DNA of 64,000 nt from Phoronis australis (GCA_002633005.1 NMRA01000163.1:156071-220070), one strand, 5' to 3'. Shown: positions 7,374-31,864, counted from the stretch's first letter. Numbers and translations are program-made. The notes: a model not told the origin generated them from the sequence alone.

Positions 7374-7991
7374 GTGAGTTTTCTTTCATTCGATGTTTGT
7401 AAGATCTTAAATTTGTGCACTGCAACGTATGACTAGGAAACGAATGAAAATGTGAGTGATTAAAGTCGTTCCAAGACCACATCTCCGATATATCCAGAAA
7501 GTGATCTCTGTATGCGAGAAATAGACATATCTTGAATATATTGAACTTCTTCAAGCACGTTTATTCCCTGGTAAAACCGATCCCACTCAGTGGCAACATC
7601 ACGGGATATTAAAAACACTGTGCTGTATGCTAGTTAGCTGAATGGAAAGCTGAAGCGGAAAAATCCAGAACACACATTTTCTATTCAGGAATTGAAATCT
7701 CGGTAGAAGCAAAAACAATAGGCAACCAGGATTTATAGAGTCAGAAAACAGGAGAGAATTGTTTTCATGCCGGAGACTACATGACCACCCATTATGCAAC
7801 GATGACGATCCAGTGTGTACCTATACATTGGCATCTATTGTAAAACGTAGATTAGACGAAAGAAATACAGCCGCATTTCCAAGGTAATGTTTTTTTCGTA
7901 GTAGGTCTTCACAGTATTGGGCTGTAACAAAAAATTTCTCAGATATATGTGTTTGGTATCTTAAATCTATACAGGTAATGTTAGATTACAG

Positions 7992-8770: not shown

Positions 8771-9102
8771 GTCCAATCCCTGTATGTTGTATTTGCTTGG
8801 TCAGTGAAGATGTACAAATACGTAATATACTCTTGCTCATTCGAGACAAGCTATGGTGTAGGTTGTTTTTATGCAAGCAGTGCTGAACATTTTTTATAGT
8901 TTTTCCTCGTGTGGAATGCTTTTGAGGGTGAATATGTTATATGTGCATGGAGAGGAAGTTGGTAGAAGTACTGCATGTTCTTGGTTTGTGGTGATGTAAG
9001 CATACTCTTGCTCTTTGAAGACTAGCAATCCTACAGGTTGTTTTTATGAAACATTGCTGTCCTGTTGATGTGTTTATTCTATAAATTTCAACCTGAAAGT
9101 GT

Positions 9103-9199
9103 GATTTTATTTATTTATTTATTTAATACTATTTATTAATGTAATATTTACAATGAGGGTAGCCCCATCAGTTCACACTGCTTTCCATGGGTGCCGTCA
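9103..9199 (-). mobile_element. Short insertion with a (TAAA)n-like tail on the minus strand; probable 3' end of a non-LTR element or SINE
   Basis: Present in repeat copy 1 but absent at the matching position of copy 2 (CCTGAAAGTGTAATT at about 12632). Has a TTTATTTATT run at its left end. Confidence 0.5.
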
Positions 9200-10339
9200 G
9201 TAAATTACTATATATGCATTGAATTGCATACTTTTGAGCATAATTAATCTTAGCCACTAAAGAAATTACATCGTAAGTGCGTACATAGAAGTAGTGTATA
9301 ACCTTGATTCGTGAAAAAGAACAAATAACTGTAGTCTTGCTCAGTGAAGACAGGGCGTGCTACACCTTGTTTTTTGTAACAAAGTGGTTCCTGTCCACCC
9401 CTGTACAAATAGTGGGCGTTGATGACTCTTTCACACAATTATATTTAATTATGCAGTGCCAAGATGTTCTCTTCGGCTACTTAGGCAGTAGATGGTGTAC
9501 CACATTTGGCACAAAAGGCAAGCGGAAGGTGGCAGAATGTTACATTACGGACCCGACATTGGTCATTACTGAAGATTTTCCACATCGTGTCAAATAAACA
9601 AGAATGACATTATACAAGTACTGAAGAAGAGAAGAAAATGATCAACGCAAAGATAAGCAATGACAAGTTGATGTGCACAGAGAAGGTGTGTATGGATGAT
9701 GAAAACTGCACTAAAGCCAAAGAAAAGATTCAAGTGCGGAGACAAGTAAATAGGGGTCAAGTCGAGACCCACACGATTAAGCAATGAAACAACGCCAAGT
9801 GTTACGTTTAAGCTGGAATGCTGAAGTGTTATCTGCAATACGGTAAATAATTTAGGGTTGAGAAATTCTTCTAGACCAGCTCTTTTAGCTTTTGAAAAGT
9901 TTTGCAAACTTTATATCAATATTGAAATGTGGTTGCAGGCCCGAGGCCTTATAGATCACAAAAAATTATATTCTATTCTATTATATTCTAATCTATAATA
10001 CACTCCGCAAAAGCTTTACTTGGAAAATTTTCTTAGATTTTTAAAAATACCTTGCAGCTCGTGTAGTGGTTGGGTATATGTCAGAAATGTAGTGTGGATG
10101 TATGGTCCTGGGACATATTAACCAAGATTTGCTCAGGCGATCAGAAAAAAACATCTTCAATTTAAGTAAGTAATCTAAAAACCCTAGAAAAGTAAACAGT
10201 TAAAAAGGGTATGTTAACTGCATCCACTGTAAAATATCAACCTCATCCTATTTTGTTCCTGTTCTAGCGGAATTTCCAAACCTACAATTCGAAGTCACCG
10301 CTTAGGAATAAACAAAAACACTAAAGTAGCTAAGAAAAT

Positions 10340-10637
10340 TGGAAGAACCCAGGTGCTGTCACTAGAAATTGAATACGAAATATGTGACCATGCCAAATGT
10401 CTTAATGTAGTGTTCTTCGGAATAACTAGAAAGAACCTCATGAAACTTGCCTACAACCAAGAAAAGAAATCACCAAGAAAACAGTGGTTCAACCTTTTTA
10501 TGAAACGTCATCCTGAGCTCAGTCGCAAAACACCAGAGCCAACATCTCTAGCAAAGACCTAAGTTTTCAACAAAAATTGTATATTAACTCCTGACCGAAT
10601 ATTCAACATCGATAAAACAAGTAATTCAACGATACAA
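10340..10637 (+). pseudogene. pogo/Tigger (CENP-B HTH) transposase fragment
   Basis: GRTQVLS.EIEYEI...FFGIT..L.KLAY...WFNLFMKRHPELSRKTPEPTSLA*..FNK...PDRIFNID. The 5' part recurs at about 46350-46490. Confidence 0.75.
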
Positions 10638-10689
10638 GTGCTGTCAACAGCAGGAGAGAGCGATTACAAAGTGTCATGCGGTGGCAGAC

Positions 10690-10889
10690 GTTTCAATTTA
10701 CACGGGGTAGCTGGAGAACAAAGACTAGTTAAAGAGAAATTTACAAAGGCTGTAGCCGATACACCTGCTGCCACCTTTCTGTGTGGATTCAAGGAGGGTG
10801 TTGGTTTCAGCACCAAACCTTGGTATATTTGTAAAGTAGTTTCTGATCAGCTTCGTGCGGAAAACAGCGTAAGCTTTCTTTCACTTTGA
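10690..10889 (+). pseudogene. CMC/EnSpm-like transposase fragment
   Basis: Motif VADTPAATFLCGFKEGVGFS resembles the DxxA...GGFKE motif of animal EnSpm-like transposases. Confidence 0.55.
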
Positions 10890-10913
10890 TCATAGCAGAA
10901 ACACGATTGTAAA

Positions 10914-13765
10914 GCACATCAAACTTATGTGCGGGCACAAAACTTATCTGCGTAAAGAGTTGCGTTTTCAAAACTTTCAGAGCATGAGCTTAAGGACTAC
11001 ATGGGAAAGAAAAGAAAACCAAATACAAAACAGGAACTTGTCCAAGGAATATGTAGCTCTTGGAAAACTGTTACCCCGAAGAAATGTGCATAATACGTAC
11101 GGCATTTACGGAAGGTTGTACCATAAGTGATTCATTGCGGTGGAGCCACCACAGGATATTACAAACACTGTGCTGTACACTTGTTAGCTGAATTGCAAGC
11201 TGAAGCAGAAAACAATCCAGTACACACATTTTCGATTCAGGAATTGAAATCTCGGTAGAATCAAAAACAATAGGCAAAAAGGATTTATAGTGTCAAAAAC
11301 AGGAGAGAATTGTTTTCACGCTGGAGACAACATGACCACCCATTATGCAACGATGACAATCCAGTGTGTACCTATACATTGGCATCTATTGTAAAACGTA
11401 GATTAGACGAAAGAAATTCAGCCGCATATCAAAGGTAATGTTTTTTTTCGTAGTACGTCTTCACAGTATTGGGCTGTAACAGAATATTTTCTGATATATG
11501 TGCTTGGTATCTTAAATTTATACAGGTAATGTTAGATTTCAGAAGTCTTGCACTGGTCAGGTCTTGTTGACAGCCCAGAGCTCTTTGTGGTCCAACGGGA
11601 AGATCTAGTAGCTGGCCACATTGGCCAGACAATAATGAAAAAAAAATATGCTAACAGATATCATGGAAGCAACCGTGCTTGTTGATGAAGCATACCAGCT
11701 TGTCAGAGGTGGAAAGACCAGGGGGAGACAATCATGGCAACCATGGAGGGTGATGGAAGAACATAGGCCAGATGGCAATCAAGACAGAAACTATGCTAAC
11801 AGAAGTCATGGGAGCAACCCTGTTCAATGATGAAGCATACTGGCTTGCCAGAAGTGGGTATACCAGAAATTATGTCCAAGAGACCTTGGAGACAATCATG
11901 GCAGCCATGGAAGATGATGCAAGAACAAACAATCCAAGGCCCAGCATAATCCTAGCGGGAAATCCAAAAGAAATGGCAAAACAGTTAAACTCCAACCCAA
12001 GTCTTAAGAGATTAGTCAAACTTTCACATTCAACGATTATTCCACGTCTGAACTAACCAACATTCTGTTACAAATGTTGGAGACAGACGAGTTTACAGTG
12101 CTTCCATCAAAAGGAAGTTCAGTCTTATTTAGAAACCTGTGTGGAGTGAAGTACATAAGTACAGCAGTGGCTTCTGCGTTAGAGTCGCATGTATAGTCAA
12201 AAGATATAAACGAAAGCCGGTTTATACAAATAAACAAGGGCAATGCTGCAAGCGATGAGGACTTGGTGACTGTGGCCTTGGACGATTTTCACAGTGCTGT
12301 GCCAACAGTTGTTCAATCCTTGTATGTTATATTTGCTTGGTCAGTGAAGATGTACAAATAGGTAATATACTCTTGCTCAGTCGAGACAAGCTATTGTGTA
12401 GGTTGTTTTATGCAAGGCAGTGCTGAACATTTTTTATAGTTTTTCCTCGCGTCAAATGCTTTTGAGTGTGAATGTGTTAAATGTCCATGCTGAGGGAGGT
12501 GGTATAAGTATTGCATGTTCTTGGTTTGTGGTGATGTGTGCACACTCTTGCTCAGTGAAGACTAGCAATCCTGCAGGTTGTGTTTTAAGGGAGACATTGC
12601 TGTCCTCTTGATATGTATTCTATAAAGTTCAACCTGAAAGTGTAATTATTATACATGCATAGAGTTTCATACATATGAACTTAATTAATTTTAGCCAATA
12701 AAGAAATTAATGCCGTAAGTTCGCAGAAAGAAGTAGTTTATACCCTTGGTGAGTGAAAATGAACAAATAACTGTACTCTTGCTCAGTGAAGACAGGGCGT
12801 GTTACACATTGTTTTTGTGAGAAAGTGGTGGCCTGTCCATGCCTGCACACAGGGTGCGTTCATGATTTTTCACACAATTATTTAATTATGCAGTGCCAAG
12901 ACGTTCTCTACGGCTATTTTGGCAGTAGATGGTGTACCACATTTGGCTCAAAAGGCAATGGTCGTTATAACTTAGGATTTTCCACAGCGTGTCAAACAAG
13001 CAAGAAACACGTTAAACAAGTACAACTGAAGAGAGAAGAATATTATCTTCAAGGTAAAGATAAGCAATGACAAGTTGATGTATGCAGGGAAAGTGTATAT
13101 ACATGATGAAAACTGCGGCTAAGTCAAAGAAAAATTCAGGCGTGGAGACAAGGTGAATAGTGTTAGTGAATAGGGGTCAAGTCGAGACCTACACGATCAG
13201 GCACTGAAACAATGCCAGGCGTTACGTTTATGCTGGAGTGTTGATTCAGAAGTGTTATCTGTAACGAACGTATATAAATAATTCAGGGTTGAGAAATTAT
13301 TCTAGACCAGCTCTTTCAGCTTTTGGAAACGTTTGCACACTTTTTATCAAAAGTTATGTTAGTGAGAGGTGAAACAATGAGTGTCTAAATTCAGTATGTA
13401 CCTGTTGATTTTATACATGAAATGCAGTTGTGGGCCAGAGGCCTCATAAATCACGACGTCAGAATTCTATTGTATTCTAATCTATAATAAAGTATGCGAA
13501 AGCTATGCTAGGTCAATTTTCTACGATTTTCGATAATACGTTTTGCAGCTCGTATAGTGGTTGGGTGTAGGCAAGAAATTCTGTGTGGATGTACGGTGCT
13601 GGGACATATTAACCAAGATTTGTTCAGCCAATCAGAAAAAACGTCTTCAAGTTAGTATAAACATTCAATAAACCTTAAAAGAATAAAGTAAACATTTTAA
13701 AAAAGTGTCTGTTAATTGCATCTTCTGTAAAATATGAACTTGATCCTATTTTGTTCCTGTTCTGG
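10914..13765 (+). repeat. Chimeric ~3-kb repeat, copy 2 (tandem to copy 1, period about 3.55 kb; 3'-truncated)
   Basis: Matches copies 1 and 3. Includes the Tc1 tail (about 10982-11165) and the CbbX-like fragment (about 11543-12310). Similarity stops at about 13765. Confidence 0.9.
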
Positions 13766-13925: not shown

Positions 13926-14110
13926 CACATGCTATGAACATTCCCACTAAATAAAATTGGTTCTAACCCCGGTGTTTAAGGTAATTGGCGGGGTATGGAA
14001 AATTGAACTAGACCGTATTTATCCACCTTGGCTGAGACGCGCTCGGCTCATGCTCAAAGGGATGCCGCCAAGCTGCTCTATTCATCGAGTCACGAGCGAG
14101 GATAATTGAC
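13926..14110 (+). repeat. Left arm of an imperfect bipartite inverted repeat bracketing the RAG1-like locus
   Basis: ACCGTATTTATCCACCTT (14012-14029) is the exact reverse complement of 31803-31820. 13928-13952 matches the reverse complement of 31838-31862 at 19/25 positions. Weaker similarity extends to about 14110. Confidence 0.55.
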
Positions 14111-14800
14111 TTCGCTCATGCGGATATGATCAGCTGATTACAGTCTAGCCTAACAACTGTACTTTTTATGGAGAGAATTTTACGTAGTTTTTACTGTAAT
14201 ATTTGAAAAGAGGAGCGAAAACAAATACGAATACAACTTTGAATTTTTCAAATCGGCCCAGGATAAGAGATTTTGCAACACAGAAACACTCACGATTACT
14301 TTCATTCGGCGCGCACGAATACAAAAATATAGGACCCAAGTTAGGATTGTATAAATGTTGAACTACTCCGTGTGTTACTTAGGTTTTGGAAAAAATGCAT
14401 TTTAATACTCAAAATACGTTTTTTATAGCTATTACAAGCTCTAAAACGACTTTGTGTAATTTCATTGAGATCGTTCTTTGTCATCCGTCAAACCGGAAAC
14501 TTCCGAGATGTGACTCTGCGAGCGCGCGTATGAATACAAACCTCAGGGGAATCCGCGGGAAATTTTGCAGATAGATTTCTGGCTTACAATGATCATCAAT
14601 AAACTTTATTATGTATTTTTTATTGAAAGGAACATTTTTTAACAAATTTGCGTTTCGGAGGTACTTATTTGAGTTATATAATGTTTTTTTTCGCTCATTC
14701 AAGTACCGCGGAGAAACATTGCTGTCAAGGGTCTCCAACCAACAACACATGTTCGCCATTCAATCGTAGCCTCATGTATCAGTAGACAGTTTTTAAAATC

Positions 14801-17800
14801 ATGGCATTTGAAGTCGGCAGAAAAGTGCAAGCAGTTGATGAACTGGGTGTGTGGTGCGCTGCAGTTGTCAGAGAGTCTAGCCAGAGTGGTTTTATTGTAA
14901 GTTTTCCGGGCTGGAGCAGAGAGTGCGACCGGGAGGTGCAAATAGATGAAGTCAGAGTGCCTGTGCTTCAGTTACAGGAACGGCTGAGGCGTAAGTATTA
15001 CTTACTCACATTCTATTTGGTTATTTTATTCTAATTGTTAGTGATTTTTGTAAGGTGTCACTGCATTTTACCAGTGCCGTAAATGCGAAGTACATCCGTC
15101 GCGCGATCCCCGTTGTCCACTCGTATTTACGGCTCTAGTCTGATAATGAGATATAGCCCCCGATTTAGAGAACCACAGGCGTCCCTAGGCAATGACCATC
15201 ACCCATCTGTACGCATAGAGGAACACCATAGGAGGTTGTCGATGTGTTTAGTTCCTTCCAATTCGAACAAATACTCCTGTTATCAAACTTTTTTCTCGAG
15301 CAGTCCCTATGTCAGTTCCCAAAATCGTGAACTCAACATTTTCACTTGGCACATGCGAAGAGATTCTTTTAACCAGGCCGAAGGTCAGAAGTTGCGGTCC
15401 TACCGGCGAACTTTGAAAGCTGAAGTTCCAGCCCTTTGCGTACGTGCTTCCTGGAACCAGCCGTGCGTTTGCCGTGTTGTTAAACATTAAAATGTCAAAT
15501 ATGTGCACAAAGACTAATAAATGTCATATCAACAGCATTTATTTTTATCAAATACAAACAATAATTCATTGAAATACAATAAGTTTCAATTAAAGACAGG
15601 TAGTGGTGGCATTTTGGAAACTAACATTTGACTGACAAGATCGCAATGGCTCACCTTTGGCCTATTTGAAGATNCCCAGAACAATATGAATATGTGCTGC
15701 TAGCCTACCCGTCATCGGTGAGTTTCCAAAAAGAAACACTTAGTTCCACACAACAAACCTGTTATTCAGTGGGGTAACTGGTGGGGATAACATCACCGAA
15801 CGATGTTGATAGAAACTGATTGCTAAAAACTTACCAAGTAATGTTGTGTAGTCTCCGAATGCCGGGAACTGCATAGTCATAGAGCACACACGGGGCTTCA
15901 TCATCCACACACTTTTTGTCAGTTAGTTGACCCTGTTGACCGCAATTGTCCACGAATATAGTAACCTTAGGTCTTTTGGGAATTTGTGGCCACCTGTCGA
16001 AGACTTGTACCAAGGAAATTATCAGTAATATGGCTTAGCGCGACGACGTATTTTGATAAAAATCCCATCTTTTACCAGTTGTTTACATGCAGACAGCCAC
16101 GCATGCGCAATTCAATCACCACTAGTACAGCAGCGACACCGCGAGGAGAATTCTCCGAATAGCCCCATTGGGTTGCATCATGTTAGTCATCACCATTCTC
16201 TTTTTATTGGTTCTCCGTCACAGACACCATGCAGTGTCTGGTTATTGATATCATCTTGTTAGCCCAACCCGTCAATGCCAATATCAATTTTTTGTCACAT
16301 ACTTCAATTTTCCAATCTTACCGGTACTGTCAACTCCTCACATGGGATATGCATCATGCTGGTAAAAAGACACCTCATAAACAGATTAACCAACTCTCTT
16401 AAATGAAAAAAGCAGTGACCAGCTTCAAAGCATTTTTGTGTTTTTTTGGTTCGGTATCAGACTACAGAAATATCAGTCTTGCTCCATACTTTTAGAGGTG
16501 TATCTTTGTATCAATGTCAAAGTATTTCAAAAGCATGTGGTCAAATGGTAACCAGTATCTAACACAGATCTTCGTTTAGTGTCCTTTGAAAATGTGACGT
16601 AGTGTGTTGACTTTTCAGAAAATGGTGTCATACCTGGAAACAAAAGGCGTTCTAAGAAAAGGCAGAGCCCACTACAAAAACTAGTGAGTGGTGATATCGT
16701 TGTTGTGGAGGGTAAAGATAGTGTGGTGAAGAGGGTGGACCCATTCAACGAGGAAGTCACTCTTGAATGTGGTTCTATAATCTCATACAGAGATATAGAG
16801 GTTAAAGGTATGGTTTATGTTTATTATTACATGGACATGTCAACATGTGTAGGAGGTTGAACCAGGCCTTTAACTGTGTATGTCCAGAACGTCCAAATGG
16901 ACGCCCTAGCTCTAATCTGGACGCCCTAGCTCTAATCTGGACGCCCTAGCTCTAACCTGGACGCCTTAGCACTAATCTTGTCGCCCTGGCAAGGACGCCC
17001 AATGTCAATCAGTACCTTTCAAGTTAGGACACATTGTAATTAATGATAGCTAGGAATCCTAGGCACATACCTGAAGGGACAAGTGAGCTCACAATGCTGG
17101 AAGAAATATACAAAGTATATACAATGTAACAATATATTGGTTGATAGCATTGAGTATCAACACATTTCAAGCCTTAGCAGGTTTGGTTGTCAAGTTTCTT
17201 CTACTGCTGGCTATGCACCCAGTGATATATGCTCCATATCTTATTACTATATGTATATATAGGGTGCATACCTTAGTGCAACTCCAAACTGGTGTTTCAG
17301 AGCTGTAACTTCACGACTTTCATCTTTTTTTAAAAGCATCAAAAGTTCTATAAATGTCAATTTAATGCAATGTTGTGTCCACAAGGATATGACTATTCAA
17401 ATTTTTTTTTGAGTTTGCGGCCGTTTAATCCTTATCAATGTGCGTTTTAAGGTTGTTGTGTGGAACAGCACCTTTTGCCAAAATATAAATCACACACCAT
17501 ATGTGCATTTTTCTTGTTTTGAATCTGCGGCTCTGACTACTCATTTTACAGAATATTAAAGGTAATTAAAATGATATGACAAACTTTACACCGTTAATTT
17601 GACTAGAGATCACCAAAAACAATGCACTCATTGTTTAACCAAGATCTCTAATATTTGGTAAGCTACTTGGCTGTTTTCGTGAATTTAGATGTAAAAGTCC
17701 TGGTCTACAAAGTTTGTTTAGTATAAAAGCTCACTTCAGAGGGCTGTTTTGTAAACTTGGATGTAAAAACCTTGGTCTACGCATTTTTTTTAAAACAAAA

Positions 17801-20430
17801 ACTGTCTGGTGGGGGTTGCATTTGAGCGGTCTTGGGGGTGGGGGTTAGGTGTCGGAATCATGGATGCTCTGGAAACCCCATTGTGCACATCCTATTTTCG
17901 AAATCCTGGATAAATGTTTGGGCTGGCCCATAACTTGTTACAGAGAAGGAAGTTGGCCATTTTTCTAACTTAAGGGGTAAGCTGTGTAAGTGAGTCCTGG
18001 GTGGTTGCAGTTGTTCAGATTGCATTCATGCTTCTTTTGTTTGTTAACTTGAATGCTGCCTTTGTGGTCAAGATTCTACTTTTCACATTTTGTTATTGAT
18101 ATCAAATCTATTCTTGCAGTGATATCTGAAGAACTCAACGCTCCAAAAAAACAGCGACGCACTAAGGTAGTGAACCCTGCCGCGCTCGAGAGTGTTATTT
18201 CAGAAATTGTTGAAGAGGTGAGTCTTGGTATCTTATAGGCATTTTGAAGAATTTTGCTGTATCCATAAAAACAATTGATATCATATGTATCATTCTAATT
18301 GTATTATAAAATAATGAGTGTTTTGAAAATTTCACGTTTTGTGCGCTCACAAAGTGTTAGGACTATACATACGTTTGTCCATGTTGTCTTGAGGAGTCAT
18401 TATGTATTGTAAAGGAATTCTTTAACATGGGGAAAATAAGAGACCATTTGTCCTTTCTGAATGTAAAGGACCATTCATCAGAACTTGGATGCCGTGTACT
18501 GAAAAACAGTGTTTTTTTTAACTTTTTGGTTTGTGTGACTAGTTATGTTGTACACAACATAAAAGGAATGGCCAAGAGGCCCAGTTTGTGTTATCTTGAT
18601 GTTTTAGTCTAAAATTGCTAGTATTTGCAGGTAACAACAGCTCCCCTTATTCAGGCAATTGATGACACTTCTTGTGTGTACGCATTGGGTGAAGTGCATT
18701 GCGGTTCTTGTTGCAAGGTAAGTCCATTTTCTCTAAAGCCATGATGGACACAGGCTGAAAGCTGTGGTCGTTAATACACCTGCCACGAAAATTCATTCAT
18801 ATTTCTTAACTTTCTTGCATAATTACAAGTGCCCCAAAATTTTCAGTCATATTTACGAATTTGTGCTGGTACAAAAACTTATCGAGTCGAGCCAATTCAT
18901 CGAGTTATATTCCTATGTGTTTCATTTGAACTTGAAAGGTAATTATTTGTTTACTATTTAGGTGGATAGCTCTGATACGGTGGTTGCTGTCGGCCATTTG
19001 GACTTATTCAAGAAAGTGGCAAGCTGTGTACTCGTAAACGATGGGCAGCTGGACTTGGATTTCAAAGTTCAGTTGCCTGTCAAGAGACTATGCAGTTATG
19101 GTGGAGCTGTCAATAGGGACACCGCGGCACATTTAGAGATGGTAAAGAAGAAGGCCCATGATTTAACCGCGTCCAACATGTGTCAGAAAGATTACAGGTA
19201 ATTTTTCCATTTATCAAAGAAATGATGATTCCAAAGCTTTTGACATTGTTGACATAGGGTGCGATCTTTGAGTAATGGCAAAGACAACCTTCTTTCATGA
19301 CAATTTTAGCAAAAATAAGGTTCGTTGGTTATCTCAGACATATTTTTCACTTAATTATAGCTTTTCATAATTTAATTAATTATTCATTCTCTACTCCAGA
19401 AGTGATGTTTTGGGAGGCAAGAATTCCCTGTATACAGCAACAGTGTGGCATGTTGATTGACTCGTAAACTAATGCAAACGACGACTGAACTTATCACAGC
19501 CGAGATAGAACAATGACTGACTCGACAGCTCTCACAGTGAGACTATATGAAAATAAATTGGCGCGAAATTTTTGCCTCCTAAAAGGTCACTTCCGGAGGA
19601 GATTACGATTAATTGTTTAAATTGCCTGTAATTACCTGAAAACTATTTCTGGGATAATCAACGAACCTTATTTTTGGTCAAAATGACATGAAAAAAGGTT
19701 GCCTTTGCCTTCAAATGATTTGAGCATGTGTGCTTATATTTTTTTTAACTTGTTAATAGGATACAGAGATGGGTATTTCTTTTACTTAGGTTGGTGAATA
19801 AAAAAGCATTTAATGAGAGTAAGCTCAAAAAATTGATCTTCTAATTCGCCCCGTTCAATTGATAGAACTGCCAGTCATCCCTTGTGGGCTCAGAATTTTC
19901 CCACAGTATATTGTAACATACAAAAGTCAAGCTTAAAACTAATATTATACTGAACTTCCATTCTGCTAGGTGGGTTTTGATTCACCATTGTACAAATGTT
20001 TACGGCTACTTTATGCCCTGATTGCATTTTTAGGATTGCCTTCAGAAAGGCACAGGTGGGGTGTGCCATTCGAAGTGAGGTTGATGCCTTTCTATTGAGG
20101 AACATCACGTCAGCCACCTTTTCTATTGGTTTGTCAAATCCAGAGACGGATTGCCATGTGCTATTGGGGCTCTCGCCATATAAGCCAACTGTAAAAGTTA
20201 GTTACAGACGTGGCGATGAGCCTCTGTTGCTCTTAGACGACCTTCTGGGAGAAAGATGGGATGTACAGACAGGGGCGGCCACAAAATTTGTAACTTCGTT
20301 GAAGTTGAAGTTAAAGGGCAACAATATTAGTGTGTCGGTGAAATCTGCGCAAGTCTTCGATGTTTTGGCTGGGAATTATCGCAGAGCCATAGTGCAGCAC
20401 TTGCGGTTTATTGAAGAAGAGAATGCGTAA
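14801..20430 (+). CDS. Six-exon gene, 398 aa, with an N-terminal Tudor/chromo-barrel (Royal family)-like domain; may continue by splicing into 22313-27654
   Basis: Exons 14801-14990, 16619-16807, 18120-18217, 18631-18717, 18962-19197 and 20034-20430. All introns are GT-AG and phase-consistent (1197 nt, no internal stop). N-terminus GRKVQAVDELGVWCAAVV...FIVSFPGWSRECDREV. Confidence 0.8.
16898..16999. repeat. 20-bp minisatellite (TGGACGCCCTAGCTCTAATC, about 4-5 copies) in intron 2
   Basis: Directly visible tandem units that degenerate toward the 3' end. Confidence 0.9.
19276..19710 (-). mobile_element. Non-autonomous Kolobok-type MITE, same family as 57167-58830
   Basis: Long TIRs GGCAAAGACAACCTTCTTTCATG / CATGAAAAAAGGTTGCCTTTGCCT with degenerate TTAA flanks (GTAA/TCAA). 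Internal 19510-19570 is the reverse complement of about 57285-57345. Confidence 0.8.
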
Positions 20431-22292
20431 GTTTTTCATCCAATGTGTGTGTGATGATCTTTGGCAACTGGTCTGAAATAATTTGCTCTAGGTTTATAAA
20501 ATAGTTACATGATGCATGATGCGTTTTGGTCGAGGTATGATCAGAGTTGTGTATTTTCATGGGAGCGAAGGTACACTGGTAAATCAAAATCAAGGTCCAT
20601 GTTTGGTGGCCACACGTCAGGTTTATAACTAAATTCTTAGAATCTACTGCACTGAGAGTTAGTTCATTTACCAAATGTACTCTAAGAGAACAAATTTTAG
20701 CTTGTAACTCAGCCAACTCTCGTAATATGGACCTTGATTGTTATTTACCGGAGAGTCAAAATGTATATCCATTTATACTGCGCATTTTGTCATTTTTCAT
20801 TGTGTTTAACAATATCTGCTTCTCGTACACGCTATTTGTGGATAGTTATTTCATTTCTTGCACGTGCTATTGTGCAGCGTACAGTCAAATGTTTTTACTA
20901 TGAATCTCAAGACCTGTGACAAACGTTCGCCATTTCCCATAGAATTTCTATGTAGTGAAGTTGCCTTGGGACAGTAAGCGAGTAAACACTGTAAACTTGG
21001 TTCGTTGTAACGAGATTTGCCTGTATGTGCATGTGTGGTATAAGTGAAAGTATGCATTTCAGACTTTGCTGTTTCCGAATGTTCTATCTCAAAATTTGAT
21101 AAAATTTAATGAGATGTTTAACGGAATACACAAGTTAAGAAATTAGTTTTTTGTTGACTACCTGCTTCGTCACTAAAATGCACAATTTCAGAAATGGTGG
21201 AGTGTTTTTCGTGTATGGTATCAAAGTGGCGACAAATGCACTATATAATTGCTTTATGTACCTGATCTGTTGCGCACTGTATACATTGCCAATGACCAGC
21301 ATCTGAGATCTACATTGGGAAAAAATTGCACAATGCTTCGATGTTATATGTCATTCCAATTGTGGTGCTACTTCCAACTTAATTGGACATAATGCCATAC
21401 TTTTATTCTAGATCATCTTTTCAGACCAGTTTGATACTTAGCATCATATTCATGAGGTTTGGTTATTATACTTTTGTTCAGGACTAAATAGCATGAACAA
21501 GTCATGGTTTCTCATGCATTGTTGTTTAATATGTGGCTTATACTGACACCAGTTTAGTTAGTTTCAAAAATGGAAAATAATGCTTTAATGTGCCAAACAG
21601 TGCAGTTTTGCTGTTATTTTCATTAAGTTGACTTATTTGTTTGTGTAAACGGTAAGCCTTGTCTCACGAATGTTATATGCCACACTGTGTAGAAACGGTC
21701 TCTTCTTGACCTATTTAACATTTGACGACCAAAACATGGCATTCCCTTGGGTTTCATACTATGGAATGCATTTTAGAGGTTATCCAATAGGGCAAGTTCA
21801 GATTAAAACTTTAAACAGTTGTTCTTGGGATGAAAAGAAGATTGTTTCTTCGATCAGGTTCTACCAGGGAAGTTGTTTTTTATGTCACTTTGAATTTCAC
21901 CTCCGAAACTGCGCTGTATGTGACTTTAAAGTGGTTTTCTCTTAAATTGTTTGCCATAAGTTTATATTTAGGGTATTTGAACTAGCATGCTGTAGAACAA
22001 AGCAAGTGACAAATGCGGGCCATTGATCTCTATTGATGCTTTGATGCATATATGCAGGTATTTAGAGCCACATGTCAGCATCAAAAATAAGTAATATCCC
22101 ATTGTTTTAGTAATGTGACATGTGCAGGGGTGTATGTGTTTTACATCCTCTTGTACAATAGTTCAATAATAGGTTTAGTGGTCCCTAAGTGCAATTTGTA
22201 GTTCGTTCTTTTTTGTCTGGTACTGTACCTTTGTTTTGTAATTGCTTGATCTTTACTGTCGACCTTATGTGCCATGATTTCTAATTGCCATT

Positions 22293-22907
22293 ATGCTCCA
22301 CTTTCATAATAGTATTCGCTGTGCACAACATAATCATGGTTATTCATGTGCAGTTGATGTCTTGATAGAAATATTTCGTCTGGGAATCTTTCCCAATTTG
22401 AGTATTCCACATGACGTGTTTTCTATTCACCCACTCTTAGCACGGTTGGGTTATGTGTTTGAGGTGTGCAAAACTATGCCACCGTCTTGTGAACTTAGAG
22501 AGGGAGTTTGGAACTGGCTTACTGAAAACTGTTCATCAGGTTATGTTCCTAAAGGACGAGGCAATGCTGAGTTTCTAGAAGCTCTTTATGCTTTGAAGCG
22601 TGGGAGTGCAGTAGAGCACTTCTGCTTCACTGGCACAGCGGAAGTTAAATGTAGTTCTTGTATGTTCAAGGCTCGCCATACTGTTACTTCAGACTCGGTC
22701 ACTAGGATCAGCCATGTAAGGAACACTGGTAATTTGCGTCGTGATGTTGAATCATCTATAAAGTATTTTGTTGAAGCTCAAACTCGTTCTGCGTTTCGTT
22801 CATGTGCCATATGTTGCCAGGATGTTTTTGGACACAATATCGGTGAGAGTTCCGGATGTGCTGTTTTTGTACATTGCTCAAAGTCGGGACCACAAGAACC
22901 GTTGTGA
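22293..22907 (+). CDS. USP/peptidase C19-like N-terminal half (Cys box, CxxC pairs), frameshifted into the large ORF
   Basis: QHNHGYSCAVDVLIE (Cys-box-like) plus CSSC and CAIC. The His box continues in the +1 frame (VPDVLFLYI...PGHFYCAV...VVDDLN). Frameshift at about 22830-22845. Confidence 0.6.
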   Translation: MLHFHNSIRCAQHNHGYSCAVDVLIEIFRLGIFPNLSIPHDVFSIHPLLARLGYVFEVCKTMPPSCELREGVWNWLTENCSSGYVPKGRGNAEFLEALYALKRGSAVEHFCFTGTAEVKCSSCMFKARHTVTSDSVTRISHVRNTGNLRRDVESSIKYFVEAQTRSAFRSCAICCQDVFGHNIGESSGCAVFVHCSKSGPQEPL

Positions 22908-25900
22908 ACCCAATGTTACAGTTCCTGAAGATGTTGATATGTTCTCTTCTGGTTATAAGCTCACTGGGGCAGTGTTTAGTGTCCCAGGACACTTTTATTG
23001 TGCTGTAAAATCTGAGGTTGGCTTCTCTGTCGTTGATGACTTAAATCACAAAGTGGTACAGTTCAAATCTTTTGATGGGGCAGTACACAGTGACCCATCT
23101 AGTATAGGGAAGTGTTGTACTTTGTCTGAGTTGACTAGTGTTCACGTTTTGGTCTATGTGAAGTCATCTCTACTAAAAGCTAGTTGTGCAAATAGGGTTC
23201 CATTATCAGAAGTAACAAATCGAAAATTGCTTTACTCTGAGGTGGTGTCGTCTTTTCCTAAACGTGAGGAACGTGGTGCGTCTTGGTCTTCGCCAGCAGG
23301 TCGATGTGATAATTCAAAGACTATCCCAGTAGAGGTGTCCTCACCTATTGGTCAAAATGATATTTCACAGTCACCTGCTGTTACTCGAGAAGTTACAAAG
23401 TCAACCTCAGTTGCCCAAGGTAGTATTAGAAAGACCAACCGCGTTGCTCAATGTGAGGGCTCAAAGTGTGTTGTTGACCAAGATGGTGATGTTTTGTCAG
23501 GTGCCAGTTCTGATTACTTGTCCTCAACGTCTGCTCTCCGACATGAATCGAGGTCCGTTCCAGTGTCAAAATCAGCTCCTGCTTCCTTGTCCACTCCAGT
23601 TTCGTGCATTGGTAGTTCGGAAATCCCCACCTCCTCTACAACTGAGAAGTCGAGTGTTGGCCAGAATGATGATTTGATATCCAACGATGTGGCACTAGAC
23701 AAGTCTTCTCTTAAGAGACATGACTCAGGTATTGGGATAAATCGTGGCTGTACAGATACAGAACCAAAGAAAAAGTTCAAGAGAATTAGTTCTGAAATTT
23801 CGTCCTATCCTGAGAAAGACAAAGAGAATGTAAGTTCTCAAGACGGAAGTGTCCCAGTTGTGGAGTCTAAACTGGTTGTTATATGTGGACACAAAGTCAT
23901 GTCATCAGTAGTCAACGGCATGGTGTATTTTTTGTGTAAAGATGTTTTTCTGTGTGCGGGCTTGTCAAAAGAAATTGAGCATCGTGGGTATGGTAGGATT
24001 GATGCCATTCTGAGGGACTCCAAACGCCTTAAGTCGAGTAGTAATTTTATTCTGAATAATAAAGGACGTCGTCTATGGGTCAGCAGAAGTGCACTCATTG
24101 AAATAATGAAGAAAAGTAGAACACCGTTTTCGTCTTCATTTGCGAGTACCCTGAAAAAGTTCAGATTTTATCGTCGCAAATCCCATGACTCTCAGTTACC
24201 AGTGAATAAGTCTCCAAAGGCTAGAGGTTTTAATGTGTCATGTTGCAACTCTGAGAGTGTGTCTGCAGACAAAGCTTGTGATAAAGCACCTGATATTCCC
24301 TCAGGATTCTATGCCATATTTCCTGGAAATGCACCTTCTGGTTCCTCTTGCTCCAATACTGTTCATGAAGTCTCATCCAAAAATTCAACTTCGGATTCAT
24401 TGTTGTCCAAATTTCAGGAAGACACATCAAGGATTTCAACTTCTTCAAATTCACTAGTGGGCAACAACTCCTCTGACTGTGAATCTTCAAGTTGCACTAC
24501 ATCTGGTGTGATTCCTGTTACTACTACTACTAGCTCCTCAGTGTCCAAGATACCTTATGCAGTTTTGACATCAAGTGTATCTGTTGAAGGAAATTTAGTT
24601 AGTTACAGTATATCTGAGAGGAGTATACATTTGTCTACCTGTAGTGTTCTGAATGTGCTTGGAATTGGAAATTATGTTAAAAAGAGAGGCTATAAAGTAA
24701 TTGATAAATGTCTGACAGAGAACGGGTTTCTTGCTATGGATGTTTTTATCTTCGAAGGTAAAAATAGGCCAAAATTGAAATTGGAAGGCCTTTCTGTTCT
24801 CATTATGGCTTTAAACGATAAGTTATTGAATAAGCAACGAAAATTCATTCTGTTGCATGCATTCAGTATAGCTGCAAGTGAAATTGTCACAACACATGTT
24901 GTGAAGTCCGCTAATTCTCCTGGTTCAGTGGAACATAGGTCTCACAAAAAAAAGTCTGGTGGGAAGTTAATCGAAAAGTTTGTGTCTTCATCATTCGGTG
25001 GTGACAAGAAGCAATTTCTTAACTCTTTTTCACAATTAATTTCCTCAAAGAAGTCTTGGGACTTGAACAGTTTAAAAGTAATTTTGCAGACCATAACGGA
25101 AACGAAAAAGGGTGCCAAAGATGTAGAAAACTTCGTCATTCAATTGTATTCTGAGCGCCACAGACTCAAACCACATGATGTGATTTATCTTCAGGAGAAC
25201 TTCAGCGGGGTCAGGCTCATGGATGAGCTCAGAAAAAAGTTACCTGGAGTTGTTGCCACTCGGCGGAGCGAAATGTTGGTCAAGGCCAAACTTACAAGAC
25301 AATTTAAGTCTGTTTTACTTCCTCGGCAAATTTCAACTGGTTGGAGCATTGATGTTGGCCGCCTTCTTCAAGTACTTCAATTTAAATACCCTTTTTTGTC
25401 TGGCCATCTCCATGTGAAACTCCAAGGTGATGGGAGGTGTATTGGTGGGCGTCACAGCACCTACATTGGTTTGAGCTTATTAAATCACGAAATAATGCTT
25501 AACGGTCTGTCTTATCAAAGTCCAGATGACATATATCCTGTGTCTCTTTTCTATGAGAGTGATTCAAGAGATAATCTTGAGGAAAATATTGAAAACTCTC
25601 TCAATGGTATGCTGAATGAAGTTGATAGAACCACATTTTATTTAGGCGGCGATGAGATGTTTATCCAAAAAATTTTGGATGGCAGCAGTGTTTTGTCACC
25701 TAGTAGCTATAGTGGATGGAATATCTATCACGAAAGTTCAACCGATTCGAAGAAAGATGTCGCCGACACTGGTCTTCGCACTGACCTTAGTGTGTTAATT
25801 GACCGCAATCACCCCGAGTCTTTGTTGTCCTCCATTGCCTTACAGAAGATAGTATTTTGTATTCTTCATGGTTTAGCCAGAATTGTTGAGAAGTTACTGG

Positions 25901-27654
25901 TGCTTGAGATAGAAATTATTCTTGGCTATAAGAACAAAGTCGAAGTAACAACATCTATTCAGGCAAATGAAAGACTTACTAATTTGGAAAGCAATATTAA
26001 CTTGCGTGGTGTCCGTCAAGGTAATTTCAAAATTTCATTCGATAAGTGTGGAAAGACTGAGCCAATTTCTCTGAATAAAGACCATGCCCTGACAATAATT
26101 AGTCCAGCACCTATTGGTTGTGAATCCTCATATCCACATGTGCTGCACAACGTGTGTAGCAATGCGCCAATGAAGAACACTTTAATTTCCAATGTAAAGG
26201 ACTATCTAAACTTACATAATGATATTACAGAGCTGCAGTGTGTGCAGATGATTTGGCACAGTCTGTACTGCATGTTTGAAGTTCTGCACAAGGAGCCTAG
26301 GCATATTTTAAAAGAGCAATCTCCTGTTGGGTCTCTTAAAGCATCTGATTATACATTTTCGTATTCCAAACAGCAGCTGCAATCGTACAAATTCCATGCG
26401 GAACGGTTTTATCAGCTTTTTTGCCTACGGTATTCAGCCAAAAGACTCACGCCTTACATGCTGAAATTTGTAGATTACGCGCCATACTTCTTGACAAATC
26501 TTGAATTCCCGATTTGTAGGTTTTCTACCGAAGGTGGAGAACACTCAAATTATCGCCATAACATGTTTTATTACAACCACACAACACGAAATGGTGGAAA
26601 TTCATCAGATGATCCACATTTTTCTATACTATTGTCTCAGTGGAGGAAGTTGTACTGTGACATTGCCAATGGAGACCCAAAGGCATACAAAGCATTTAAA
26701 GTTTACATTGACAATCACTGTAAAACAAAGGCCACCCAAATAATTGCTCGCAAGTTTTTGTTCTGGAGCAAAGTACGCAAAAGTGGAATGTTGCTCACTC
26801 CAACTAATAATTCTGAGCGATCGGCCAACAATGCCAAATTGCAAGCCATTTCATCATTCACATCACAACAAATGTCTTTTTCTCAGGAAAGGAAGCTTCT
26901 TCATGGCATGTCTTTCATTTTGTCTGGTAATATTCCAAAGTTCAACAACCAAAAGTATTCGCATGAACAGTTGAAAGAACTGATTGTTTCTAATGGTGGC
27001 AAGGTCAGGAAAGGCTTACCTGGACTAAAAGGGAAGTCTAAGAAAAGTTACATCGTTTTAGTTAACCTAACAAAGTCACCAAAGCCTCCTGCTGTTGTTT
27101 GCGAAGCTGTTCATCGTGGACACACTGTTCTAAATTTTCAGTTTCTCTATGATACCATCATCAAATCTGAGGTACAGGATACACAAGCATATGTACCTGA
27201 AGTAGTTGACAAGTTAAAGAAAAAGTTCACAGTTGCTCCCTCCCATTATAGACTCAATTCAAGCAAAAGGGCCAGAATGATTTCCTTGCTGAAAACAAGG
27301 AAACGAAGGAAGAGATGTTTAAAAACAAAGAAGACGCCCAGGAATGTACAATTGTTCTATGCCAAAGTCAAAATTCAAGAATTGTTAAAGACAAGGCGAA
27401 ACTTCCGTGATGTTCCACAATTAACATCAAAGTTTTCCAAACAGTTTTCAGTTTTACCTCCGGATATCAAAGCTAAATACAAAGAGATGTGGTTAAAAGC
27501 CAAGGAAGAGGAGACTTGTCGTTTGAAAGAGAATGCAGACCTTCGTCAATACAACACTTGCCAGCAACCCAATTATATGTCTATTTTGTCATCTCATCAC
27601 AGTGTGCAAAAGTCCAGCAAGTACGTTGTGCCTACACCAGAATTGTCTGTGTAG
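22768..27654 (+). CDS. 1628-aa ORF: RAG1/Transib-like DDE transposase core fused to a USP His box, two Bro-N-like repeats, BRCT and HMG box
   Basis: Ordered motifs KLQGDG (D888), YESDSRDNL, LGGDEMF (D962), CILHGLARI, TPYMLKFVDY and FSTEGGEHSN (E1258) parallel RAG1 KESCDG, DESDHETL, GYDEKL, DALHCDI, TNYFHKTLAH and WASEGNESGN. BRCT-like region at about 26896-27170. HMG-box-like region at about 27328-27520. The 4.9-kb frame is uninterrupted. Confidence 0.75.
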   Translation: MLKLKLVLRFVHVPYVARMFLDTISVRVPDVLFLYIAQSRDHKNRCEPNVTVPEDVDMFSSGYKLTGAVFSVPGHFYCAVKSEVGFSVVDDLNHKVVQFKSFDGAVHSDPSSIGKCCTLSELTSVHVLVYVKSSLLKASCANRVPLSEVTNRKLLYSEVVSSFPKREERGASWSSPAGRCDNSKTIPVEVSSPIGQNDISQSPAVTREVTKSTSVAQGSIRKTNRVAQCEGSKCVVDQDGDVLSGASSDYLSSTSALRHESRSVPVSKSAPASLSTPVSCIGSSEIPTSSTTEKSSVGQNDDLISNDVALDKSSLKRHDSGIGINRGCTDTEPKKKFKRISSEISSYPEKDKENVSSQDGSVPVVESKLVVICGHKVMSSVVNGMVYFLCKDVFLCAGLSKEIEHRGYGRIDAILRDSKRLKSSSNFILNNKGRRLWVSRSALIEIMKKSRTPFSSSFASTLKKFRFYRRKSHDSQLPVNKSPKARGFNVSCCNSESVSADKACDKAPDIPSGFYAIFPGNAPSGSSCSNTVHEVSSKNSTSDSLLSKFQEDTSRISTSSNSLVGNNSSDCESSSCTTSGVIPVTTTTSSSVSKIPYAVLTSSVSVEGNLVSYSISERSIHLSTCSVLNVLGIGNYVKKRGYKVIDKCLTENGFLAMDVFIFEGKNRPKLKLEGLSVLIMALNDKLLNKQRKFILLHAFSIAASEIVTTHVVKSANSPGSVEHRSHKKKSGGKLIEKFVSSSFGGDKKQFLNSFSQLISSKKSWDLNSLKVILQTITETKKGAKDVENFVIQLYSERHRLKPHDVIYLQENFSGVRLMDELRKKLPGVVATRRSEMLVKAKLTRQFKSVLLPRQISTGWSIDVGRLLQVLQFKYPFLSGHLHVKLQGDGRCIGGRHSTYIGLSLLNHEIMLNGLSYQSPDDIYPVSLFYESDSRDNLEENIENSLNGMLNEVDRTTFYLGGDEMFIQKILDGSSVLSPSSYSGWNIYHESSTDSKKDVADTGLRTDLSVLIDRNHPESLLSSIALQKIVFCILHGLARIVEKLLVLEIEIILGYKNKVEVTTSIQANERLTNLESNINLRGVRQGNFKISFDKCGKTEPISLNKDHALTIISPAPIGCESSYPHVLHNVCSNAPMKNTLISNVKDYLNLHNDITELQCVQMIWHSLYCMFEVLHKEPRHILKEQSPVGSLKASDYTFSYSKQQLQSYKFHAERFYQLFCLRYSAKRLTPYMLKFVDYAPYFLTNLEFPICRFSTEGGEHSNYRHNMFYYNHTTRNGGNSSDDPHFSILLSQWRKLYCDIANGDPKAYKAFKVYIDNHCKTKATQIIARKFLFWSKVRKSGMLLTPTNNSERSANNAKLQAISSFTSQQMSFSQERKLLHGMSFILSGNIPKFNNQKYSHEQLKELIVSNGGKVRKGLPGLKGKSKKSYIVLVNLTKSPKPPAVVCEAVHRGHTVLNFQFLYDTIIKSEVQDTQAYVPEVVDKLKKKFTVAPSHYRLNSSKRARMISLLKTRKRRKRCLKTKKTPRNVQLFYAKVKIQELLKTRRNFRDVPQLTSKFSKQFSVLPPDIKAKYKEMWLKAKEEETCRLKENADLRQYNTCQQPNYMSILSSHHSVQKSSKYVVPTPELSV

Positions 27655-27889
27655 TGCTTTTATGCAAGTCTGGTAGACTTTTTTCCATATTTTGTTGGTG
27701 AGTCTGGGTTGTACTTTTATACATGTTTCTGTTCGTTGGGTTCTTGTCATGGGGGTGTGCAAAATGATTTTTATTTGCTCAATGTGCATGTTGCAGTGCT
27801 GTTTTCTTCACTGTTAGTTGCAGAATTTCTGTAGAAAGTTTTCAGTTCTTGTGCTGTCTGTCAGGACTGAATTTGGTTTACGGTTGTCG

Positions 27890-29340
27890 GACTTCCGCAT
27901 GTCAAAAGGGTCACTCACATATTAGTGTCATGGCCTGGTGAGGGACGAAATCTTTTACAGTGTCTGATATTATTCACATTACATAATCAGTATTATTGTC
28001 TGTTTTCCGACTGTACTTTATCATTCCCCATTGTAGAATTCACATTTTTGTTGGTGTCATTGTCTAATTGGTTTACATATGTTACTGGTCTTACAGATCT
28101 AGGAAATGGTGTCATAAGCGTGTTGAAAAGTGTTTGATTTGCCAACAGTGTTTGAATCTCTACTGTACATTATATTATTTTTCATATATGGTGCCATGAT
28201 CTGTTCGAGCTGAGTTGTAATTACAGATTTTGACTCTATGATTCACATTTAACATGTTATTGACTCTTGGCAGATCATATTTTCGTCATTCTCCACATTA
28301 AAACTCCTGCTTTTGGATGTTCTTGCTTTGTTGGGCTTACAGATTTGACATGGTTTGTTGATGTGGGAAATGGTAGTTAAAGGTTGTTTAAATGAGATTT
28401 GTTCCAGTATTGGTGTTACTACCTTCACCTTACTTAATGGCGTTTTTCATGGATGATGCTGTGATATGTCATAATTGAATTGGGTTGACACGAGTTGGGG
28501 CTAGGCATGTCAAAAGCCTAATTCACATTCAGAATTACTGACTCATGGCGGATATGTTTTAGTTCCCCTTTCTGTATTCTACTTGTTTGGGTGTTATTTC
28601 CTTTTTGGGGTTACAGATGTGACTAGGCTTGCAGATGTGGCTGGAAATGCTACTGGTCTGTGCAATGCGATTTGCTTTAGCGTTCCTTTGTGTTTTTTCA
28701 TATTGGGTTATGTGGTCTGTCATAACTGACTCATGCCGGAGCTACGTATGTTGAAAGCTTTATGCAGGTGTACAGCTTGCCATATTTTGTATTTGCTGTT
28801 AGTTGCATTGGGTCCTGTGTTTGGATTTTTCTGATTTAATGTTGTGTAGTGGGTCATAACTGAATCAGGCCTAGTGATGTTGGAGCGAGGCTTGCCGAAA
28901 GGGTAATATCCATTGTTGCTGTCACCCTTCGTATGGCATTTCATCATTTTTCTTTGGCAAAGTAGAATCCATTATTAGTATTAGAAGCTCTGCTTTGGTG
29001 TTTTTTTCAGACATGGAGCTATCAGCTATGGTCTGTTGTAACACTGAGTCAGGCCCTCGCATGTCGGAGTTACGCTTGCGGGCAGCCTGATTTACATTCA
29101 CTATTGTTGTCACCCCACATATTGTATCTTTGTAATTCTCCACAGGTGCAGTAGAATCCATTATTAGCATCAAAATCTCTTATGTTATTTTCCACATATG
29201 GTGCTCTGATCTGTTATAACTGGGTAAGGTCTTCCCATGTCGGAGCTACGCATGCGGAAAGCCTGATTCACATTCAGTCTGTAACAGATCACATTCTTGT
29301 TATTCATTCCATACTTTTGTTTATAGTTGTAGATTTGTTA
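27890..29340. repeat. Degenerate tandem array (about 190-300-bp units) downstream of the large ORF
   Basis: Recurrent blocks GTAGAATCCATTATTAG (28961, 29151), GCATGTCGGAGYTACGC, GCCTGATTCACATTCA and GATCTGTTATAACTG. Confidence 0.6.
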
Positions 29341-31749: not shown

Positions 31750-31864
31750 TATCAGCCAATTATTCACGCATGCTGACTCACAATAGAAGCCTGATAAGAG
31801 TGAAGGTGGATAAATACGGTGTTCCTACAGATTGTTGATTTAGTGGAGTTGTTCACGACATGCA
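31750..31864 (-). repeat. Right arm of the inverted repeat bracketing the RAG1-like locus; re-duplicated at 35594-35733 after NN
   Basis: AAGGTGGATAAATACGGT and ATTTAGTGGAGTTGTTCACGACATG. 31726-31865 is nearly identical to 35594-35733. Confidence 0.55.

Follow-up and report, generated by a model that had tools for sequence, protein, structure and literature searches.

A probable two-gene DNA transposon with a predicted RAG1/Transib-fold transposase, present as a frameshifted copy in Phoronis australis

Introduction

Does the genome of Phoronis australis encode a giant recombinase in which a RAG1-like catalytic core is fused to its own accessory domains? The question is raised by a stretch of 64,000 nucleotides (GCA_002633005.1 NMRA01000163.1:156071-220070), the whole of which is called the window below. 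In this window a first-pass annotation had placed a single protein of ~2180 residues, combining Tudor, ubiquitin-specific protease (USP)-like, Bro-N, RAG1/Transib-like DDE core, BRCT and HMG-box regions. Our analysis makes it likely that the window holds instead a frameshifted copy of a probable two-gene cut-and-paste DNA transposon. Its transposase has a predicted RAG1/Transib fold without the zinc site, and a separate partner gene is predicted to encode a chromatin reader. The lineage, which occurs in marine animals, is widespread and related to RAG1/Transib. In keeping with the novelty first supposed, neither the lineage nor its architecture is described in the literature that we searched; Repbase, Dfam and most subscription papers lay outside this search, so that an earlier listing is possible.

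Results

The transposase core has a predicted RAG1/Transib fold without the zinc site

The 4.9-kb open frame first noted at this locus is present and spans 1630 codons (Table 1). The catalytic triad announced as D888/D962/E1258 is also present and intact; stop-to-stop numbering, used throughout, shifts it by +2 to D890/D964/E1260. It is intact in 50 of the 50 aligned family sequences that cover all three sites, and the C/DxxH histidine (His1036 in the window) is 98% conserved. We modelled residues 725-1630 with AlphaFold2 from an alignment of 79 sequences (pLDDT 88.5, pTM 0.84). Among the Foldseek matches listed, the best were RAG1 (E 4.3e-10), HzTransib (1.6e-7) and BbRAG1L (1.2e-5), followed by the P element (1.1e-4). 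Comparison with the first three had been proposed at the outset, and all three were matched by VIA-align. The core superimposes on RAG1 with Z 19.7 and a root-mean-square deviation (rmsd) of 3.7 over 421 residues, spanning RAG1 459-1007, on HzTransib with Z 18.6 (rmsd 4.2, 405 residues) and on BbRAG1L with Z 17.5. In the predicted model D890 lies in the first strand, D964 just past a later strand and E1260 in a helix, which is the arrangement of an RNase H fold. The predicted fold thus supports a core of RAG1/Transib type. In a single alignment row (rmsd 8.6), a helical stretch before the core (window 24958-25158) is matched to RAG1 starting at residue 393; in the model it is possibly a counterpart of the nonamer-binding domain.

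Six RAG1/Transib-like motifs had been proposed for this frame. The triad stands, but two that a RAG1/Transib core should have, C(2)C and H(3-4)H for zinc binding, are absent. Between the second aspartate and the glutamate, none of 62 family sequences has CxxC and 2 of 72 have H(3-4)H; the motifs GWNxY and TPYMxKxxD occupy their places. According to the available text of a 2025 survey, C(2)C and H(3-4)H are common to all CMCT lineages and RAG1 (PMC12730594); ZnC2/ZnH2 ligands are likewise described as conserved in the accessible part of PMC7204232.

Accessory domains share the reading frame of the core

In relatives, the BRCT, HMG and USP-like domains lie in the same reading frame as the core, so the proposal that the element carries them in cis holds at the level of gene structure. 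The BRCT domain passes the Pfam cut-off in the window sequence itself (Table 1). Its predicted fold matches that of the Rad4 BRCT (Z 12.7, rmsd 2.0 over 88 residues), and of the 31 relatives scanned, 26 have a BRCT match at E≤0.1. The HMG box of the window falls below the Pfam cut-off as a single sequence (E 0.32); the family profile, searched against the PDB, ranks HMG boxes first (NHP6A E 2.4e-4, HMGB1 E 1.3e-3), and the predicted model shows a three-helix form.

The USP-like protease is supported by a relative, P0013, whose domain scores 0.95 to UCH in the ESM Atlas (186 shared features, 10/10 best matches in one family or clan). Its Cys box, His box and following Asp are present; by pattern, the Cys motif occurs in 24/24 cases and the His motif in 21/24. 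Pfam gave no UCH match above cut-off for the window protein, and no PDB sequence match was obtained for the domain. Weak Pfam protease matches were seen in relatives: UCH_1 with E 0.0035 in P0050 and Peptidase_C98 with E 0.01-0.017 in two others. The two domains labelled Bro-N are indeed a repeated domain (residues 369-456 and 603-701), present one to four times in 43 of 52 long proteins. The label itself is a lead only, with an ESM Atlas score of 0.88 to Bro-N and no Pfam match.

Three further features were observed in this part of the protein. In P0050, a ubiquitin-like domain ending in LTGG (residues 164-240, Pfam E 7.5e-9) adjoins the USP-like domain on its N-terminal side; judged from sequence, the arrangement looks as if the protease trimmed its own N-terminus. 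At ~1700-1745 of locus L007, within a 2100-codon frame, the motif DVESNPGP, which we take to be the 2A ribosome-skipping consensus, directly precedes the USP-like domain. An IQ-like helix lies between core and BRCT domain in the window (~26730-26790) and in relatives; Pfam matched IQ in 17 of 31 relatives (best E 1.5e-5) and not in the window copy.

The Tudor gene is a separate partner

The spliced Tudor-like gene that had been read as the beginning of the protein exists, but it is not part of the transposase. It has six exons separated by GT-AG introns, and encodes 398 residues up to a stop at 20428-20430. Stand-alone homologues of 401-438 residues, together with the opposite orientation of the gene at loci L012/L013, identify it as a separate partner. 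A homologue search with the relative P0175, limited to 221-706 residues, returned 41 proteins of 221-481 residues, the full-length ones measuring 401-438; one comes from the coral Desmophyllum pertusum. A search of 3345 candidates for longer, fused forms gave none, although such evidence is weak. Homologues that have no introns, and each a start and a stop of its own, occur in L012/L013, on the opposite strand and converging with the transposase gene, and downstream of it in L006, while spliced homologues lie upstream of the transposase in L001 and L004. The partner is thus linked to the transposase in 5 of 22 loci and in three arrangements, L012 and L013 representing one element. RNA reads from three runs, all from other samples, supported no exon junction among the 15 joints listed, with coverage too thin to decide.

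For the partner, we modelled its homologue P0175 (pLDDT 73). The model predicts a Tudor barrel (residues 1-59, Z 10.3), a second barrel, a BAH-like barrel (160-262, with middling Z values of 7.0-7.8) and long helices (246-298). Among the matches listed for the whole P0175 model, none covered the C-terminal alpha/beta domain. A RAG2-like kelch propeller, with or without a PHD finger, was looked for as the second gene; the partner is assigned to Tudor and BAH-like folds instead.

One fused protein of ~2180 residues, with the last exon of the Tudor gene spliced to the protease exon, is very improbable. Because the USP-like domain is split over two frames, such a protein needs the frameshift at ~22815-22835 to be read through, and its splice would have to use a donor overlapping the stop codon of the Tudor gene. 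That donor, GTAAGT after 20426, is perfect; an AG whose last base is 22311, with CTAAT upstream of it, would be in frame; and the NCBI gene model P0035 of the sea cucumber Holothuria leucospilota joins the two genes. However, P0035 lacks the region of the protease catalytic Cys, as expected of a stitched model, and no such GTAAGT donor exists in L001. The splice would moreover remove the conserved (H/Y/F)FxN motif, which in 20 of the 21 homologues that include it is preceded by a Met at most 16 residues away (counted by eye). The partner terminates 14 residues past an NYR motif, as the stand-alone forms do, and in L012/L013 it lies on the other strand. Nor does the lack of AG just upstream of the transposase start stand out, as stretches of at least 100 nt without AG occur 9 times in the window.

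Relatives carry terminal repeats, while the window copy is decaying

The proposal of a transposon family is borne out by 330 representatives at E≤0.001 and by the terminal repeats of relatives. Five gene models of the family occur in H. leucospilota. A tree restricted to family members, in which 63 cores were kept after leaving out those below 380 residues, has deep branches. Terminal inverted repeats of the form 5'-CATTAC…GTAATG-3' were found in L012, L013, L016 and L001. In L012, a 41-bp inverted repeat starting with CATTAC encloses both genes (791-10069). The right end of L013 is identical to that of L012 and is followed by a different flank, and L016 has a like left end.

In L001 the order is transposase 3' half, partner, transposase 5' half, and its two termini overlap by 69 nt that fall within a coding repeat; this split order and overlap identify L001 as either a circle or two copies in tandem. 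The interval from the transposase stop to the partner start contains a perfect palindrome (20+1+20, centre GTAATG/ATTAC), the only perfect one with arms of at least 13 nt in the window and the 22 loci. It represents a right and a left end joined to each other with the loss of one base, like a signal joint. A facing GTAATG/CATTAC pair at 5770/5821 of L003 may be another junction (0.075 such pairs expected in shuffles, 2 seen including L001), a small hairpin being the alternative; no partner follows it. Also in L001, four tandem copies of a ~150-nt unit lie between partner and transposase (11283-11815).

Loci L015 and L005 hold intron-less counterparts of the transposase genes in L012/L013 and L016. 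Most junctions skip a GT-AG intron, and the frames of both are broken; they are either spliced transcripts or retrocopies. No relatives were found in viral contigs. One 3.8-kb contig with a family transposase (L022) is filed in a bacterial metagenome-assembled genome and is likely host DNA carried into the bacterial bin.

In the window, a second frame of 209 codons (22278-22907, + strand) overlaps the 1630-codon frame. Since relatives carry both as one continuous frame, the transposase gene of the window has its start codon at 22293, and a frameshift interrupts it and splits the USP-like domain; read through, it would encode ~1785 residues. A contig from DNA run X1, which may be related to the source of the window, spans 20353-24859 with 20 differences in 4505 nt. 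Its sole gap is 2 nt at 21874, and it therefore carries the same frameshift. Another contig, representing a second haplotype, lacks 17 nt at 25526-25545, inside the core. Read depth is ~47 across most of the transposase gene and 70-103 over 25782-28451, where one piece differs at 23 of 433 nt; this points to at least one more related copy. Sense-strand RNA coverage, at a low level, is present over the transposase gene. The locus looks like a decaying element.

These data also bear on whether the locus is a domesticated host recombinase or nuclease kept under host selection, the alternative named in the first-pass annotation. Purifying selection is seen between L002 and L003 (nonsynonymous divergence dN 0.11, synonymous divergence dS 1.25, dN/dS ~0.09; dS against the window copy is saturated), introns are present in some lineages, and the window shows no ends. 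Against this, the frameshift recurs in the contig with 20/4505 differences, the other contig has lost 17 nt of the core, other repeats sit in the partner introns, relatives have terminal repeats with different flanks, and several divergent copies occur in one genome. In view of the frameshift, the deletion on the second haplotype and the five H. leucospilota gene models, domestication at this locus is most improbable.

A long-range inverted repeat links the two gene starts

The window contains a 41-nt inverted repeat, absent from the first-pass annotation, in which arm A covers the start codon of the partner and pairs with arm A' shortly before the transposase ATG (Table 1). The same feature occurs in L001, which is ~38% identical to the window in protein: its arms lie at 6997-7036 and 11928-11967, the second ending 17 nt before the transposase ATG. 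As RNA duplexes both are outliers (z -7.7 among 1977 windows, and z -7.8 among 1310 windows in L001), and neither arm shows notable local structure. The sense strand pairs better than the other strand, with -54.5 vs -39.3 kcal/mol in the window and -64.5 vs -55.7 kcal/mol in L001, while arms swapped between the two elements reach only -26.7 and -33.2 kcal/mol. Among 25 aligned pairs, 10 are identical in the two elements, 5 differ in one base and 5 in both bases, and 5 have lost pairing; an extra codon in the L001 arm is matched by three extra paired bases. Two cases are few, yet position, strand bias and covariation agree at the level of sequence. Upstream of the partner start, one E2F-like motif was observed in both elements (window 14555, L001 6939); the whole window has 7 such motifs.

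The same element may be read otherwise: the partner, never in contact with the transposase, would serve in anti-silencing or self-regulation, and the inverted repeat would act in trans, through antisense mRNAs or as a source of small RNAs, or as a DNA inversion site. We hold this to be possible, if somewhat doubtful. In fungi, DNA transposons bear TET/JBP genes to which an anti-silencing role is ascribed (PMC12730594, available text), the partner orientation varies among relatives, and the reverse complement of arm A' also begins with ATG GCA in the window. However, the sense strand pairs better in both elements, which favours RNA over DNA, and the position of the arms, 12 and 17 nt before the transposase ATG, together with their absence where the genes converge, favours action in cis. 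The present evidence fits either a cofactor or an anti-silencer.

Table 1. Features of the transposon copy, in window coordinates
Feature	Coordinates	Strand	Remarks
Arm A of inverted repeat	14796..14836	+	covers partner start codon; duplex z -7.7 among 1977 windows; same feature in L001
Partner exon 1, start codon and Tudor/chromo-barrel	14801..14990	+	GT donor; MSL3_chromo-like E 0.036; homologue P0175 residues 1-59 Tudor Z 10.3
Partner exon 2, second Tudor/KOW-like barrel	16619..16807	+	AG/GT in frame; tblastn to L012/L013 partner E 8e-8
Partner exon 3, predicted linker	18120..18217	+	AG/GT in frame
Partner exon 4, predicted	18631..18717	+	AG/GT in frame; like exon (MGNIQCGNLYK) in L001
Partner exon 5, part of third, BAH-like barrel	18962..19197	+	AG/GT in frame; tblastn to L001 E 2e-4; P0175 BAH matches Z 7.0-7.8
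Partner exon 6, C-terminal alpha/beta domain and stop	20034..20430	+	partner profile E 1.4e-5; GTAAGT donor after 20426 overlaps stop
Arm A' of inverted repeat	22240..22280	+	ends 12 nt before transposase ATG
Transposase gene start and USP-like cysteine-protease domain	22293..23196	+	Cys codon 22347, His codon 22990; split by frameshift; in frame in relatives
1630-codon open frame	22762..27654	+	stop 27652-27654
Repeat domain 1, Bro-N-like (lead only)	23866..24129	+	family profile E 7e-22; ESM Atlas Bro-N score 0.88
Repeat domain 2, same family as repeat 1	24568..24864	+	family profile E 5.9e-21
RAG1/Transib-fold DDE core (predicted)	25156..26682	+	D890 25429, D964 25651, CxxH His1036 25867, E1260 26539; without C(2)C and H(3-4)H zinc motifs
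BRCT domain	26893..27192	+	PF16589 E 3.4e-7, above cut-off; fold match to Rad4 BRCT
HMG box	27331..27510	+	family profile vs PDB; single-sequence Pfam below cut-off

Other features of the window

High-copy repeats occupy partner introns and the region upstream (19277-19711, ~15212-16169 and ~13928-14525); the first of them is bounded by terminal inverted repeats, and relatives of it lie at 57156-58835. Both arms of a perfect 18-bp inverted match (14012-14029 / 31803-31820) lie inside other repeats, for which reason it was set aside as a candidate for the element ends. Exon-like pieces at 33252-35433, the last with stops and frame changes, are presumably AP endonuclease 2-like; Pfam did not confirm this. 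About 130 nt near 31725 recur near 35596. A broken long terminal repeat retrotransposon (38205-42381) retains reverse transcriptase, RNase H and integrase and has an internal 414-nt duplication. Finally, a repeat unit of ~3.5 kb is present in three copies, at 7632-13641 and 43577-46493, two of them in tandem, with most segments 84-96% alike.

Comparison with known transposon groups

With Transib (e.g. HzTransib), the element shares the predicted core fold, the DDE triad, the conserved C/DxxH histidine and terminal inverted repeats starting with CA. It differs in lacking the zinc motifs and in the ends of its relatives, CATTAC instead of CAC. The transposase, of ~1800 residues with USP-like, repeat, BRCT and HMG domains, and accompanied by a second gene, also contrasts with canonical Transib, which consists of the core only in the accessible part of PMC4411706.

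With RAG1-RAG2, ProtoRAG/RAGL and TransibSU, the element shares RAG1 as best fold match, a partner with a predicted chromatin-reader fold and an end-to-end junction like a signal joint. As in RAGL/ProtoRAG, two genes lie within one pair of terminal repeats, directly in L012 and via the fused junction in L001. The gene pair occurs both convergent and in tandem with the partner upstream, an alternation that the available text describes for RAGL and AanRAGL (PMC9435367; for RAGL also PMC7204232). In contrast to RAG systems, the partner is Tudor/BAH-like and not a RAG2-type kelch and PHD protein, the ZnC2/ZnH2 ligands are missing, no RING/ZDD or Chapa domain was detected in the element, identity is 9-13%, and HMG box, BRCT domain and protease are present in cis. 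Since the zinc motifs are missing and the ends differ, the element is not a member of Transib or RAG1L. It would work like Transib/RAGL yet belongs to neither: zinc ligands, CAC ends and a RAG2-like partner were each tested for, and none was found.

The CMCT clade (EnSpm/CACTA, Mirage, Chapaev, Plavaka, ESTA, Lanisha) has in common with the element a RAG1-type DDE core and CA..TG termini, seen here in relatives, but it shares C(2)C and H(3-4)H where the element has GWNxY and TPYMxKxxD. EnSpm also has a second gene. Zisupton carries a Ulp1 protease. Helitron VTD/OTU proteins likewise hold a ubiquitin-family protease inside a transposon protein (PMC9741609, available text). The protease found here differs from these transposon-borne deubiquitinases in being USP/UCH-like and in residing on a transposase of RAG1 fold.

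It is rather unlikely that this is an ordinary, already catalogued family of Transib/Chapaev/EnSpm type with captured domains. Its CA..TG termini and fold fit the CMCT clade as presented in the available text of PMC12730594, and Repbase and Dfam lay outside our search. However, no RAG1/Transib-type Pfam family was matched by P0001 or 44 relatives scanned, and no paper was found that combines a Transib transposase with BRCT and HMG, or a transposase with BRCT, a terminal inverted repeat and Repbase. A broad DDE survey makes no mention of BRCT, HMG or protease in its accessible text (10.1101/2021.09.26.461848), and a 2026 Transib preprint, as far as it is available, concerns a 648-residue fly element (10.64898/2026.08.26.747230).

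Discussion

The domains suggest how such a two-gene transposon might move. A transposase dimer would bind the CATTAC ends, aided by its one to four repeat domains, and its own HMG box may bend the end DNA, as HMGB1, whose use by RAG is seen in PDB entries, does for RAG. The DNA would then be cut and reinserted by RAG-type chemistry, the BRCT domain likely contacting repair factors at the break. Excised ends might sometimes be joined, giving circles or tandem copies. RAG is steered on chromatin by the PHD finger of RAG2, and by analogy the partner, with its Tudor, Tudor/KOW, BAH-like and C-terminal domains, likely guides the element on chromatin or protects it there. In elements with the partner upstream in the same orientation, base pairing between arms A and A' in the RNA would hide the partner AUG and place the transposase AUG at the base of the stem, which would let synthesis of the two proteins alternate. 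The protease likely strips ubiquitin, which would stabilise the enzyme or undo silencing; a protection role has been proposed for Helitron deubiquitinases (PMC9741609, available text).

By the same analogy, we infer that the extra domains may stand in for HMGB1, RAG2 or factors of non-homologous end joining. Going further, we put forward tentatively, as something that could well be so without being probable, that this is an undescribed, superfamily-level sister lineage of RAG1/Transib which reached the RAG design separately. It would have done so with a zinc-free RAG1-fold transposase into which HMG box, BRCT and deubiquitinase domains are built, a Tudor/BAH protein taking the place of RAG2, circles resembling signal joints, and a long-range RNA switch for alternate production of the two proteins.

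Several observations weigh against the reading as a RAG1/Transib-related two-gene transposon with such control. No RAG1 or Transib chain appears among 55 PDB matches at E≤10 obtained with family profiles by sequence search, so that the kinship rests on the predicted fold at 9-13% identity; a PDB sequence search with P0001 likewise gave nothing meaningful. Around the window copy, no terminal repeat or target-site duplication was found by a CA..TG scan, CATTAC patterns or blastn-short. Nor was a target-site duplication, which in Transib measures 5 bp, seen in L012, the only locus with both flanks and possibly a chimeric contig. The partner was not seen in 17 of 22 loci, most of which are short or without the relevant side; L003 has 4 kb downstream without it. 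Compared by eye with the aromatic cage of the PHF20L1 Tudor domain, by which methyl-lysine is read (Y24/Y29/F47/W50/Y54, from the available text of 10.1101/2020.04.29.069500), the window Tudor keeps 2 of 5 residues, the equivalents of F47 and W50, and P0175 keeps 4 of 5. Eighteen long relatives are without the USP-like domain. The duplex is known from two elements only; L012, with its convergent genes, lacks it (best z -3.8), and its G-U vs A-C tally, 7 to 2, is small.

RAG1 derives from this group of transposases and needs separate proteins to bend DNA, read chromatin and repair ends. A lineage with such domains in cis, with the zinc site lost and with a different reader as second gene, would offer a direct comparison with RAG. 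It can show which features of RAG the chemistry needs, and whether a reader partner was acquired more than once. A co-varying RNA duplex between the starts of two transposon genes would be an unusual form of self-control. Those relatives that have open frames and short terminal repeats can be tested in cells.

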